DNA of 4,907 bases from a virus (lineage: Duplodnaviria > Heunggongvirae > Uroviricota > Caudoviricetes). Positions 343 to 4,827 of the stretch are shown here, piece by piece (position 1 is the first letter of the stretch; the number at the start of each line of letters is the position of its first letter). A model generated the notes under the pieces. It was not told where the DNA came from, ran no database searches, and worked only from the letters and a program-made list of their open reading frames with translations. Where the stretch lies: the IMG/VR virus record IMGVR_UViG_2675903606_000017, positions 1-4,907 of that record. One strand, 5' to 3'. Position numbers and translations under genes: made by a program.

Positions 343-357
343 TGTAACCAGGTGAAT

Positions 358-371
358 CATTTGATACCGAC
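358..371 (+). repeat. Putative terminal transposase-binding site L1 (CATTTGATACCGAC)
   Basis: TTTGATACCGAC at 360-371 is repeated exactly at 455-466 and as TTTGATACTGC at 507-517. Extended, L1 (358-371, CATTTGATACCGAC) matches the third copy (505-518, CATTTGATACTGCT) at 12 of 14 positions. The three copies start about 16, 111 and 163 bp from the proposed end, similar to the L1/L2/L3 arrangement I recall for Mu attL. Confidence 0.45.
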
Positions 372-452
372 AAGGGTTTTAGTGAAAGGAGGTGAAATCA
401 CCTGTAAGATGCTGAAATAAAACAGGTGATGTATACTTCGGACGGAAAACTC

Positions 453-466
453 TTTTTGATACCGAC
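453..466 (+). repeat. Putative terminal transposase-binding site L2 (TTTTTGATACCGAC)
   Basis: Exact 12-bp repeat of the L1 core (TTTGATACCGAC, 455-466), same orientation. Confidence 0.45.
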
Positions 467-504: not shown

Positions 505-518
505 CATTTGATACTGCT
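505..518 (+). repeat. Putative terminal transposase-binding site L3 (CATTTGATACTGCT)
   Basis: 12 of 14 match to the L1 copy at 358-371, same orientation, about 40 bp downstream of L2. Confidence 0.4.
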
Positions 519-698
519 AATTTACCCTTAAAATCTTCTTCAAAACATCTTCAAACTGCCAAAATGCTCACATAATCGATCTAACTATAATCAGTATGAT
601 AATCATCATGAATTACTATTCAATAGCGTGATTATCTTGGGATGAGTCATATGATCTCTATATGTATTTACAGCACCACCTCATGATAGCGATGGCGC

Positions 699-1466: not shown

Positions 1467-1733
1467 ATGAGGGTATCCAGACAAGCATCGAATAATTTGT
1501 TTGTTCGAGAGGGGTGTGACTGGTCTGCTAAAGCGGTATATGCAGCCCTTGAAAACAAAGGCACAGACCTCCCTGAACTGGAAAGGGAGTTAGGATTAAA
1601 AAGCGGATCAATGCGCAATGTGTTTTACCGCCAGTGCCGTAAATACGAAGCCGCCATCGCCGAAAAAATAGGGGTTGAACCTGCTGTAATCTGGCCCAGC
1701 AGATACCAGGTGGACGCCAGAGAAGTGGCTTGA
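1467..1733 (+). CDS. ner: Ner-like DNA-binding protein (Mu Ner / Nlp family)
   Basis: 88-aa ORF immediately upstream of the transposase gene. Residues DW...LS...PEVIWPSRYQ match Mu Ner as recalled (DWHRADVIAGL...ETKPEVIWPSRYQ); this window has DWSAKAVYAAL...GVEPAVIWPSRYQ. Shine-Dalgarno GAGAGGA about 8 nt upstream of the ATG at 1467. The N-terminus is about 10 residues longer than Mu Ner, so the true start could differ. Confidence 0.85.
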   Translation: MRVSRQASNNLFVREGCDWSAKAVYAALENKGTDLPELERELGLKSGSMRNVFYRQCRKYEAAIAEKIGVEPAVIWPSRYQVDAREVA

Positions 1734-1743
1734 TGGGGGATGT

Positions 1744-3834
1744 ATGTGGGTAACAGCAAAAGAATGTGTTGGTCTTCCTGATTTACCAATGATGGAACAT
1801 AACATTCGCCATCGACTCACAAAAGCAGCTGCGGGAAATGCAGCCATGTTACGCAAACGTAAGGGGACAAAAGCAATCGAATTTAATATCGATTGTTTGC
1901 CTTCTGGCGCGCAACAAGTATTGCGTGAACGTTATGCCCTTCAACTGATGACGCAAAAAGCTGATGAATCACCGGCTCCGGTGGTGACAAAGGCCAGACG
2001 CTCATCTGCCGTGGTTGATGCGGTGGAGGCATATCGCGGATCACCACAACTGATGCTCGAACGCCTCAATGCCCTGACTGAAAACCAGCGCCAGGTGGCT
2101 GATGCACGAATCGCGATCGTCAGCGAAGTTCTGAAAGTCGCGCAACAACCTGGTTTCAGCTGTGCGAAGGCTATCCGGTTTATCGTTGACAACCTGGCAC
2201 GTTCGCAACTGGACGAGCGCATTGTGGCAATGGTTGAGACGGCGAACGCCAAAAAGGGAAACAGCCGTGCGTTGAGTGAAATCACGCTGAAACGCTGGAT
2301 TGCAGCCTTTAACAAGGCGCAGAACGCCGCTGAACGCCTGCTTTTGCTGGCACCTGGTAAGCGCCAGGAAATAAAAGCCGAAGATATTAACTGGCTGCCC
2401 GAATTTCTGGCGCAGTATCGCCAGTCAAACGGCCGACCAATGACCGAGGCTTACGAGGATTTTGTCGCTGAATGGCAGCACCGGCACGCTGATGAGCCTT
2501 ATATGCTCGATATCATGCCGTCTTATGACACCATTCGCCGCGCAATGAAGAAACTGCCGGAAGTGGTGAAACAAAAAGGCCGGGTGACCGGCAGTGAATA
2601 CCGCCAGCTTGAGGGATTCACGCGCCGCGACTGGTCCAGAATGCCGGTGAATTATGTCTGGATTGGTGACGGTCACGGCATGAAGCTGAAATGCGCACAC
2701 CCGGTTCACGGTCGGCCATTTGCACCGGAAGTGACCTTTGTTATCGACGGTGGCACGCGCTTTGTGGTGGGCTGGAGCCTTGACCTGGCTGAAAATGTTT
2801 TCGCCGTAGCCGGTGCCATACAGCACGGCATTCGCCATCACGGCAAACCGTTTCTGTATTACTCGGATAACGGCTCCGGGGAAACCGCCGACATCCTGGA
2901 TAAGGAGGTTGTGGGGATACTGCCGCGACTGGGGATTAATCACCCGACCGGGATTGCCGGTAATCCGCAGGGACGAGGCATTATCGAACGGCTTAACCGC
3001 ACATTACCGATGCGCATAGCCCGTAAATACCGCACCTATTTCGGGAAAGGTGCAGATCGCGAGACGTTACGCAAAACCAACCGCGATTTACGCTCGGCAT
3101 TTACTGCCCTGCAACAGGGCAAACGGCTGAACGCCCGGCAGCAGTCAGCGATGCGTGATTTACCGTCCTGGTCTGAACTGATTGATGCCATTCGTGACGG
3201 TGTTGAGTGGTACAACAACCGGCCGCACGATGAATTACCGGTGAAGCCGAACGGCAAGCATTACAGCCCGGCGGAGTTCAGAAAAAAACGCCTGGCGGAA
3301 GAGGACACGGAAATTGAATGGCTGTCCGATGTTGAGCTGCGGGATATGTTCCGGCCGATGGTGGAACGCCCTGTAAGACGCTGTGAAATACGCTGGCTGA
3401 ATAATATTTACTACGCGCCCGAGCTGCGTGACGAGCATGGTCGTAAGGTGCTTATCAGCTATGACATTCATGATGCCGAACGAATTACCGTACGTCGCCT
3501 GGATGGCAGCGTGATTTGCGAGGCGGTATGGGACGGCAATAAACGCGAAGCCTTCCCGATCAGCGCGGAATACCACAAACAGCAGCAGCGCCTTAAAGGC
3601 ATGCGTAAACGCGCAGAGGAAAAAATCCGTGATGCCGAGGATGAGATTGTCAACGTGCTGGAGCACAAGCCACAGGAGCCGTGGCTGGAAAATATATACC
3701 GCCCTGTGGGTAATACGGTGATCGTTCAGCAACCGGTCGCTGACGATGAACCTGATGAAGAATACGAGCGTAATTTCCAGCGGGGATTGCAGCTGCTTGA
3801 AGCGAAATTAAAAGAAAATGACCCTCTGGCCTGA
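1744..3834 (+). CDS. A: MuA-like DDE transposase
   Basis: 696-aa ORF. The N-terminus (WVTAKECVGLPDLP...KGTKAIEFNIDCLP) parallels the Mu A enhancer-binding domain (WVSPKECANLPGLP...KGGKAIEYNANSLP). Candidate catalytic DDE residues sit in VWIGDGHG, YYSDNGSG and GIIERLNRTL. The C-terminus (RPVGNT...DEEYERNFQRGLQLLE) resembles the Mu A C-terminal MuB/ClpX-interaction region. Shine-Dalgarno GGGGGA upstream; the start lies 10 nt after the ner stop. Confidence 0.95.
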   Translation: MWVTAKECVGLPDLPMMEHNIRHRLTKAAAGNAAMLRKRKGTKAIEFNIDCLPSGAQQVLRERYALQLMTQKADESPAPVVTKARRSSAVVDAVEAYRGSPQLMLERLNALTENQRQVADARIAIVSEVLKVAQQPGFSCAKAIRFIVDNLARSQLDERIVAMVETANAKKGNSRALSEITLKRWIAAFNKAQNAAERLLLLAPGKRQEIKAEDINWLPEFLAQYRQSNGRPMTEAYEDFVAEWQHRHADEPYMLDIMPSYDTIRRAMKKLPEVVKQKGRVTGSEYRQLEGFTRRDWSRMPVNYVWIGDGHGMKLKCAHPVHGRPFAPEVTFVIDGGTRFVVGWSLDLAENVFAVAGAIQHGIRHHGKPFLYYSDNGSGETADILDKEVVGILPRLGINHPTGIAGNPQGRGIIERLNRTLPMRIARKYRTYFGKGADRETLRKTNRDLRSAFTALQQGKRLNARQQSAMRDLPSWSELIDAIRDGVEWYNNRPHDELPVKPNGKHYSPAEFRKKRLAEEDTEIEWLSDVELRDMFRPMVERPVRRCEIRWLNNIYYAPELRDEHGRKVLISYDIHDAERITVRRLDGSVICEAVWDGNKREAFPISAEYHKQQQRLKGMRKRAEEKIRDAEDEIVNVLEHKPQEPWLENIYRPVGNTVIVQQPVADDEPDEEYERNFQRGLQLLEAKLKENDPLA

Positions 3835-3909: not shown

Positions 3910-4827
3910 ATGACCGATATAAACGATGTAATCAAGACCATTGATGAACTTATTGATGGCGGCGTGCTGACGCAGTATGCCATCGCCAGAGAGGCGGGAA
4001 TTTCCGACGGCACATTATCGGCTTTCCGCAAGGGGAAATATAAAGGCGATAACGCCGCTGTGGCTGCTTCCCTGCGCTCCTGGTATGAGAACTGGAATAA
4101 ACAAAGCGCACTGCCGGAACCGCCGCAGTTTGTGGAAACTCAGACAGTCCAGGAGCTGCGCGCACTGTTTCAGGCGGTTCGCCTGATGGGCTGTATTAAC
4201 GTTATTGTGGGCGTACCGGGTGTGGGTAAAACGGCCACTGCCCGTAATTACTGCCAGGAGCAACCAAACACCTGGATGATCACCCTGTCACCCGCGCACT
4301 CCAGCGTCACGGAGTGTCTGCTGGAGCTGGCCGATGCGCTGGGGATTGATTACACCCGCGCGAACAAAGGGGCATTATCCCGCGCCATCCGCCGTCGCCT
4401 GATGGGAACGCGTGGACTGGTGATTGTGGATGAGGCGGATCATCTTGGTATTGACGGTCTGGAGCAACTCCGGGCAATTCAGGACGCCACGGGGATCGGG
4501 ATGGTGCTTATTGGTAACCCGCGCGGATTGTTTAAAGGTGGACGCCGCGCCTTTGATGATTTATCGCGCCTGTTCAGCCGTCTTGCCCGTACAAAACAAC
4601 TTCGCAAGGCCAAAAAGGCGGATGTGCTGGCCATTGCCAGGGCATGGGGTATCAGTGGTGAGGCCGAGCTGGCTGTCATGCAGGCTATCGCTGAAAAGCC
4701 GGGAGCGTTACGCGTTCTGACACATACGCTTAACCAGGCGTGGCTCACCGCCAGCGGTGAAGGCGCGGCGCTGACAGAAAAACATATTAATGCGGCCTTT
4801 GGTAATGCTGCCAACTTACTGATTTAG
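3910..4827 (+). CDS. B: MuB-like AAA+ ATPase (transposition target-DNA activator)
   Basis: 305-aa ORF directly downstream of the transposase gene. Walker A GVPGVGKT and Walker B LVIVDEADHL are present. Strong similarity to Mu B as recalled (PEPPQFVETQTV here versus PEPPRFVETQTV; KPGALRVL versus KPGALRIL). Shine-Dalgarno GAGGT about 8 nt upstream of the ATG. Confidence 0.93.
   Translation: MTDINDVIKTIDELIDGGVLTQYAIAREAGISDGTLSAFRKGKYKGDNAAVAASLRSWYENWNKQSALPEPPQFVETQTVQELRALFQAVRLMGCINVIVGVPGVGKTATARNYCQEQPNTWMITLSPAHSSVTECLLELADALGIDYTRANKGALSRAIRRRLMGTRGLVIVDEADHLGIDGLEQLRAIQDATGIGMVLIGNPRGLFKGGRRAFDDLSRLFSRLARTKQLRKAKKADVLAIARAWGISGEAELAVMQAIAEKPGALRVLTHTLNQAWLTASGEGAALTEKHINAAFGNAANLLI

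Follow-up and report, generated by a model that had tools for sequence, protein, structure and literature searches.

A phased repeat array between L1 and L2 of an Sp18-type Mu-like prophage is a probable variant of the Mu packaging site

What reads the cluster of CAGGTGA motifs, with its 14-bp palindrome, at the left terminus of a Mu-like prophage? The question arises from the window, by which we mean the whole stretch of 4,907 bp of viral DNA analysed here. A sequence-only reading of it had noticed the cluster and offered three uses: a site for a host or phage DNA-bending protein needed in transpososome assembly, a second part of an extended transposase site, or a hairpin in the leftward repressor transcript. 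Comparison of the window with related elements suggests another use. The array of short repeats in the spacer between the transposase sites L1 and L2 is probably a variant of the Mu pac site, and the first motif copy belongs to L1.

The insertion and the left end of the element

From position 343 onwards the window is the left end of an Sp18-type prophage, the Mu-like type present in E. coli O157:H7 Sakai. The prophage lies inside the tail-fibre gene of an Stx phage, which is broken at base 343 (Table 1). The terminus, TGTAACC..., is placed at 343 because matching starts at this base in over 25 E. coli insertions, all independent and each in another gene context. At the right end, read in one further locus (L001) and in Sakai Sp18, three adjacent inverted TTTGATAC cores are found.

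The insertion itself has several peculiarities. On the minus strand of positions 1–364 it presents a prophage within a prophage, and an in-frame ATG at 364–362, inside L1, could restart the truncated tail-fibre frame; a similar 'inserted Mu-like phage' is annotated in Stx phages under GenBank LC727881 and LC727895. In both insertions with two junctions read (L001, positions 981–1000 and 20374–20393; L013, positions 51–70 and 38826–38845), the target duplication comprises 4 bases (GTAC and TAAA), one fewer than the usual 5 bp of Mu. At the right the element ends in ...CGCTATA, with TA in place of CA as its last two bases; at the left, some copies begin with TATAACC instead of TGTAACC. Between L3 and the repressor stop codon lies an 11-bp unit, AACATCTTCAA (window 540–560; alignment A1 columns 201–235), which occurs in one, two or three tandem copies among otherwise near-identical E. 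coli lineages. In the head-gene region of a window-type prophage, the RefSeq annotation places a 'tRNA-OTHER' on the minus strand (L052, 17923–18002).

Table 1. Features of the window and, in the last four lines, of related elements (locus handle before the positions)
Feature	Position	Strand	Remarks
Side tail-fibre gene of a lambdoid/Stx phage, 5' part, split by the insertion	1–342	−	1–345 matches Stx-converting phage genes at 97–99.7%
L1, terminal transposase-binding site	343–371	+	TG terminus, outer half AGGTGAAT, core TTTGATACCGAC; assigned from the core repeats and the inverted cores at the right end
Conserved left-terminal block, 88 bp	343–430	+	L1 and proposed pac region; nearly invariant in nine E. 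coli lineages
CAGGTGA copy 1	349–355	+	Outer half of L1; AGGT[GA]A common to L1 of relatives
L1 core TTTGATACCGAC	360	+	Same core at 455
Proposed small-terminase array (pac)	382–417	+	GTGAAA 382–387, GTGAAA 392–397, CTGTAA 402–407, CTGAAA 412–417; exact 10-bp phase
Palindrome AGGTGA-AA-TCACCT	390–403		Copies 2 and 3; overlaps array units 2 and 3
Left arm of 9-bp inverted repeat	397–405		ATCACCTGT
Right arm of 9-bp inverted repeat	422–430		ACAGGTGAT; copy 4; end of conserved block
L2 core	455–466	+	TTTGATACCGAC; core repeat; kept across E. coli lineages
L3 core	507–518	+	TTTGATACTGCT; core repeat; kept across E. coli lineages
Repressor	699–1310	−	CI-type HTH; in variable immunity module
Ner-like regulator	1467–1733	+	HTH_35
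Transposase A	1744–3834	+	696 aa; 94% identical to Sp18 A, 22% to MuA
MuB-like AAA+ transposition protein	3910–4827	+	
65-aa ORF	L119: 19796–19993		RGAVW/GNGAT class
65-aa ORF	L121: 19268–19465		RGAVW/GNGAT class
65-aa ORF	L125: 19292–19489		RGAVW/GNGAT class
65-aa ORF	L126: 20018–20215		RGAVW/GNGAT class

The CAGGTGA cluster and its first copy

The sequence-only reading had located every motif correctly, namely CAGGTGAAT at 349–357, the perfect 14-bp palindrome AGGTGAAATCACCT at 390–403 and CAGGTGAT at 423–430. It was also right to assign the cluster to the left end of a Mu-like element, within and beside L1, and to note that the TTTGATACCG repeats do not account for the CAGGTGA motifs. Other statements need adjustment. 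Of the four heptamer cores counted in both orientations, three are full CAGGTGA (349 on the plus strand, 398–404 on the minus strand and 423 on the plus strand), whereas the fourth is the hexamer AGGTGA at 390, preceded by G and not C. The distal inverted repeat is real, with arms that run to 9 bp. Copies 2–4 lie in the L1–L2 spacer as described, but copy 1 falls within L1. Neither CAGGTGA nor AGGTGA has a further copy on either strand of the whole window, and none of 3,000 dinucleotide-preserving shuffles of the window gave three heptamers or four hexamers within 82 bp. Copy 1, and no other copy, overlaps a Dcm site, CCAGG (window 347–351).

The position of copy 1 is mirrored in relatives of every terminase class, in which AGGT[GA]A precedes the L1 core (L121, AGAGGTGATTTATTCAAG; L125, CCAGGTGATTTATTCAAG; L126, AGAGGTGAATTATTTG). 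Furthermore, by our reading of the sequences, GGYGA-N4-TTTGATAC occurs at both L1 and L3, and R1 is GGCGA-N4-TTTGATAC. Judged from these alignments, copy 1 is part of L1, the terminal site predicted to be bound by transposase.

Four hexamers in phase in the L1–L2 spacer

The spacer contains a second kind of order, in which four hexamers follow one another at exactly 10 bp. In element coordinates the units begin at nt 40, 50, 60 and 70 and the array spans nt 40–75, between L1 and L2. The hexamer patterns were defined after seeing the data, and the pattern derived from the window was then found independently in two relatives from other lineages, L120 and L124. None of 20,000 shuffles of the terminal 100 bp reached four in-phase hexamers; the same was true of L120 and of a third relative, L117. 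Tandem Repeats Finder did not detect the 10-bp array, whose units are too degenerate for it.

Set beside a Mu-type pac site, the array lies where such a site would be expected, between L1 and the L2 core. It is confined to the left end, as the right ends of L001 and Sakai Sp18 contain neither an array nor CAGGTGA. The hexamer class differs from the GGGA[AT] repeats of Mu, and in-phase repeats of the GGGA type (Mu pac-like) are absent from the window; the architecture of four units at 10 bp is the same. Finally, the specificity of the array appears to be matched to the small terminase of its own element, as judged by the co-variation of three classes described below.

Conservation among E. coli lineages

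Nine E. coli lineages with different immunity regions share nt 1–88 of the element almost unchanged. Divergence begins at 431, right after CAGGTGAT, and to the right of the block only the L2 and L3 cores remain conserved. We read the 88-bp block as not matched to the immunity module, because the repressors of the lineages that share it differ (203, 194, 181, 176 and 168 aa) while the block stays constant. An exact-word scan of viral contigs added 21 further left ends of the window family. Since the backbones are closely related (approximately 93–97% identical, with A proteins at approximately 93%), this conservation is weak as proof of constraint and could partly reflect recent common ancestry.

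Beyond E. coli the picture changes. The palindrome is not present in L120, L117 or L124, and together with the 9-bp hairpin it is restricted to the E. coli lineage, the array alone being shared by relatives in Salmonella and Serratia. Conservation of the motifs at the ends of related Mu-like prophages, which the sequence-only reading had proposed to check, is thus seen in the E. coli lineages, where they are near invariant, but not for the palindrome in the relatives that keep the array. In L026, which diverges from the rest of the E. coli family, two substitutions create an extra CAGGTG (GACAGGTGTTTT; ~1257–1262, element nt 29–34); in the same element, unit 3 becomes CTGCAA and the hairpin stem is down to 8 bp.

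Three array classes and a segment of the small terminase

A phased array was always present in the L1–L2 spacer of the approximately 40 related elements compared, and it took one of three forms: GGGAA/T, [GC]TG[AT]AA or GNGAT. The first, at nt 30/40/50/60, is found in Mu, vB_YpM_5, Kp4866-3, Tongde and ten loci (L042–L051) obtained by a transposase profile search of one-genome-per-species contigs. The hosts of these ten loci are Shigella, E. coli, Pluralibacter, Raoultella, Klebsiella, Limnobaculum and Edwardsiella; in L042 and L043 the left end is present, with neither B nor terminase in reach. Because the GGGA array occurs in all ten loci as well as in Kp4866-3 and Tongde, a spacer array with a 10-bp phase is a general feature of these phages. 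Many IMG/VR prophage contigs end approximately 240 bp upstream of the transposase gene, short of the left end. In their place we used contigs from Salmonella and Serratia, reached by way of MuB homologues, in which the left end and the terminase gene stand in one locus.

The small terminase (TerS) of these elements belongs to the Mu gp27 family (DUF3486, PF11985), the Sp18-type homologue being ECs_4968 or WP_000360582. Its alignment reveals a five-residue segment, following an invariant Leu-Ser, that also falls into three classes. R[ST]G-L-N is carried by Mu and all elements with the GGGA array, down to approximately 40% overall identity, on ends of the Mu, TTTGATAC and TTCAAGATAA types. [PSA]A[AG]IS is carried by Sp18, the window type and some Salmonella and Serratia elements, all with the [GC]TG[AT]AA array, on TTTGATAC ends (window, Sp18) and Mu-type ends (L117, L118, L120, L124). 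RGAVW is carried by many Salmonella elements with the GNGAT array, on ends of the Mu type (L119), the TTCAAGATAA type (L086, L121, L122, L125) and the TTTGATAC type (L126). Each array class is accordingly found on two or three transposase end types. An unbiased scan of approximately 2 kb upstream of every transposase gene found no exception to the pairing of array class and TerS segment in any locus with both features, the three classes representing few evolutionary origins, though recombined onto several backbones. The pairs observed are RSGLN with GGGAA/T, [PSA]A[AG]IS with GTGAAA, and RGAVW with GTGAT.

Three natural recombinants illustrate the pairing. L126, the sharpest control for the window, has a window-type L1 (TGTGAAGAGGTGAATTATTTGATACCGA), the TerS segment RGAVW and the spacer CCGTGATCTGGCGTGAGGAGGTAGAATTTAGTGTGAT. 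Conversely, L120 pairs a MuA-type L1, unrelated to that of the window, with an AAIS-type TerS, and its spacer, AAGTGAAGAGAAGTGTAAGGAGGTGAAAGTTACTGAAAT, holds the same four phased hexamers as the window; window-class arrays on a different transposase end type are likewise found in L117 and L124. The third, the Yersinia phage vB_YpM_5 (L010/L015), is a natural chimera. Its ends are of the TTTGATAC type and its transposase is 78% identical to that of the window and 28% to MuA, while B and the small and large terminases are 97.6–99.5% identical to those of Mu. Its L1–L2 spacer, CCGGGAGGAAAGTGGATCAAACGGGATTTGATGGGAT, is not of the CAGGTGA kind and is near the spacer of Mu itself.

Two further observations concern the GNGAT class. 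Its units often hold GATC (GTGATC, GGGATC), which places Dam sites in the putative pac region (L119 ~6660–6700, L121 ~6460–6500, L126 ~6470–6510). The pac site of phage P1 is Dam-controlled, and the GATC in the GNGAT arrays recalls it. In addition, the genes for the small and the large terminase are separated by a 65-aa ORF in the RGAVW/GNGAT class only (Table 1).

What the array class follows

The class of the array tracks the TerS segment, and it does not track transposase end type, MuB, immunity region, gp25/gp26 or host species. L119 and L120 encode an identical B protein and are approximately 97% identical in DNA across the A–B regions, yet their array classes differ. L092 combines an Sp18-like B (70%) with a Mu-like TerS and a GGGA array. 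The gp25 and gp26 homologues of L120 and L126 are 100% identical, and these two elements differ in class. The overall TerS sequences of L117 and L124 are nearest to the RGAVW class (89% and 77%, respectively), yet both carry an AAIS-type segment and a GTGAAA array. Since the array in these two elements matches the segment and not the overall similarity of TerS, the association follows the five residues. All three array classes occur within Salmonella enterica; a single species hosting all of them disfavours a host protein as the partner of the array.

Alternative readings of the spacer

Close to the packaging reading stands the possibility that the reader of the array is a late product other than TerS but linked to it (TerL or the 65-aa ORF, for example), or that the array serves another late function. 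TerL and the neighbouring ORFs are inherited along with TerS, and TerL, like the 65-aa ORF in the GNGAT class, is so tightly linked to TerS that the two cannot be told apart as partners. However, gp25 and gp26 are excluded, and the array of L117 and L124 matches the five-residue segment of TerS itself and not overall TerS similarity. Large terminases are, to our knowledge, not known to read pac sequences, which we count against TerL. We regard this reading as unlikely.

Much the same holds for an accessory site of the transpososome, at which a host protein (HU, IHF or Fis) or a phage bending protein would draw the two sites L1 and L2 towards each other, the role that HU has in Mu. HU binds the L1–L2 spacer of Mu in vivo (PMC3145075), and the motifs of the window occupy the equivalent spacer. 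HU is, however, not sequence-specific, so conserved phased hexamers are not predicted, and the motif class varies within one host species and between A/B genes approximately 97% identical in DNA. An IHF site was rejected, as the consensus WATCAANNNNTTR has no match in the spacer (372–454); the sole match with one mismatch (354–366) lies inside L1, and the total in the window equals the chance expectation. The host bending protein of the sequence-only reading is consequently not supported, given the variation of spacer class within one host species and the missing IHF consensus, and an accessory site of any kind is improbable. The other half of that suggestion survives, in that a site for a phage-encoded DNA-binding protein comes close to our best reading. 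Non-specific binding of this spacer by HU could occur all the same, alongside the packaging role and not in its place.

As RNA, the hairpin formed by 397–405 and 422–430 could terminate or stabilise the leftward repressor transcript or block transcription that enters from host DNA; as DNA, it could form a cruciform. Its 9-bp stem is far more stable than shuffled sequences as DNA or RNA and on either strand (z −2.8 to −5.3), and it is invariant in the E. coli lineages save for L026. Against a role in RNA, an intrinsic terminator scan of 343–700 called nothing on either strand; the 16-nt loop exceeds the limit of the scan, and the minus-strand tail, TTTCACCTCC, has no T tract. An Rfam search of 250–750 returned no match at E ≤ 1, and compensatory changes in the stem were not seen. 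A terminator of the repressor transcript was accordingly rejected for want of a T tract and a scanner call, and a known RNA family for want of an Rfam match. Moreover, the block does not vary with the repressor genes, and L120 and L124 keep the array with spacers that fold no better than shuffles (z > 0) and contain no comparable inverted repeat. Of the proposed hairpin in the leftward repressor transcript, the stable fold thus stands; the function does not follow, as the structure has no terminator tail, is invariant across different repressors and is absent from relatives that keep the array. We consider any such function quite improbable. A mini-ORF with a perfect Shine-Dalgarno sequence, AAGGAGGTGA, followed by ATG CTG AAA TAA (408–419), for which control by sequestration of the Shine-Dalgarno sequence was considered, was also rejected, because its ATG is ATA in most lineages and no rightward promoter was found at this position. 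The symmetry is instead an overlay specific to one lineage, because the hairpin has no terminator tail, Rfam match or compensatory change and is absent from L120 and L124; it may supply inverted terminase units or be incidental.

Still less probable is that the spacer copies are extra or extended binding sites of the transposase (A protein). The suggestion of an extended site fits copy 1, which belongs to L1 with its GGYGA-N4-TTTGATAC arrangement shared by L3 and R1, and AACCAGGTGA at 346 resembles AAACAGGTGA at 420. The spacer copies, however, have no TTTGATAC core and no counterpart at the right end. L126 combines the same L1 type with another spacer, L120 and L124 carry the same array on Mu-type ends, and between L119 and L120 the array changes at approximately 97% A/B DNA identity. 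That the cluster is chance or neutral hitch-hiking sequence is hardly credible: the close relationship of the E. coli lineages makes their conservation alone weak evidence, but both sets of shuffles (0/3,000 and 0/20,000) and the same array in Salmonella and Serratia elements with an unrelated L1 stand against it.

A proposed route from the array to packaging

Mu packaging begins at the left end (PMC2837660; PMC5977238). Sp18 DNA is efficiently packaged (PMC2669165), and a functional pac site must therefore lie somewhere in the element. If the L1–L2 spacer array is that site, its repeats, being in phase, would lie along one side of the double helix, where an oligomeric small terminase of the Mu gp27 family would attach late in infection. 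The contact would be made by an N-terminal segment of TerS (...LS-PAAIS-REA in Sp18). Once in place, the small terminase would bring in the large terminase to cut the flanking host DNA on the left, and headful packaging would then run rightwards, as in Mu.

The position of the array, its statistics, its confinement to the left end and the co-variation of motif class and TerS segment across mosaic relatives are observed. We infer from these a DNA-reading role for the TerS segment, with residues 57–62 predicted to contact the DNA, as well as the binding and cutting by terminase set out above. An AlphaFold2 model of TerS, built from a shallow alignment, has a pLDDT of 56, and sequence and profile searches of the PDB for a solved relative gave chance-level matches only. 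The palindrome and the distal CAGGTGAT, both peculiar to the E. coli lineage, may add inverted binding units or be incidental. Neither the palindrome nor copy 4 is explained by the packaging reading, and relatives beyond E. coli show nothing that corresponds to copy 4.

Implications

How small terminases read pac sites is poorly understood, and in Mu the recognising protein is assigned only by position and homology. If the pairing described here is one of site and reader, enterobacterial Mu-like phages offer three naturally swapped site/segment pairs on near-identical backbones. The cis sequence for packaging Sp18-type elements would also be defined. Such elements are common in Shiga-toxin-producing E. 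coli and insert into Stx phages, as in the window, and the packaging sequence bears on the transduction of flanking host or Stx-phage DNA by them. For annotation, the first ~90 bp of such prophages would carry overlapping transposition and packaging functions.

A broader model is speculative. The spacer array and the five-residue TerS segment might form a matched pair that is exchanged independently of the transposition module. Terminase binding and transposition could be mutually exclusive at the left end, because the array shares the spacer that is bent by HU in transpososome assembly, and this exclusion might act as a switch from replication to packaging. The palindrome of the E. coli elements might add an inverted terminase unit or a cruciform. 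We hold this model as a whole to be possible but doubtful.

Comparison with known systems

The papers searched describe neither this pac variant nor the pairing between array class and TerS segment; three known systems invite comparison. The HU-bound L1–L2 spacer of Mu is the same DNA segment, but HU is not sequence-specific and leaves phased, class-specific hexamers unexplained.

In the pacL and pacR boxes of SPP1, the R sites of lambda cosB (bound by gpNu1) and the pac hexamers of P1, an oligomer of the small terminase recognises a set of short repeats, and the DNA is cut some way off. The array resembles them in consisting of several short repeats proposed to be read by the small terminase. 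In contrast, the proteins and sequences are unrelated, and the site in the window lies inside a transposon end, over the transpososome spacer.

The closest parallel is Mu pac, which Groenen and van de Putte reportedly mapped in 1985 to the left end, in the L1–L2 spacer, at coordinates that we take to be approximately nt 32–58. The window type differs in its unit ([GC]TG[AT]AA versus GGGA[AT]), in the placement of the array 10 bp further inward (nt 40–70 versus 30–60) and in the TerS segment (PAAIS versus RSGLN); it also has the 14-bp palindrome and the 9-bp inverted repeat, neither of which occurs in Mu. Both arrays nevertheless occupy the same place in the same genome architecture, are specific to the left end and consist of four short repeats in a phase of ~10 bp. 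The terminases belong to the same gp27/gp28 families, those of Mu being 57% and 73% identical to those of the window type, with headful packaging from the left end in Mu and, as proposed here, in the window type.
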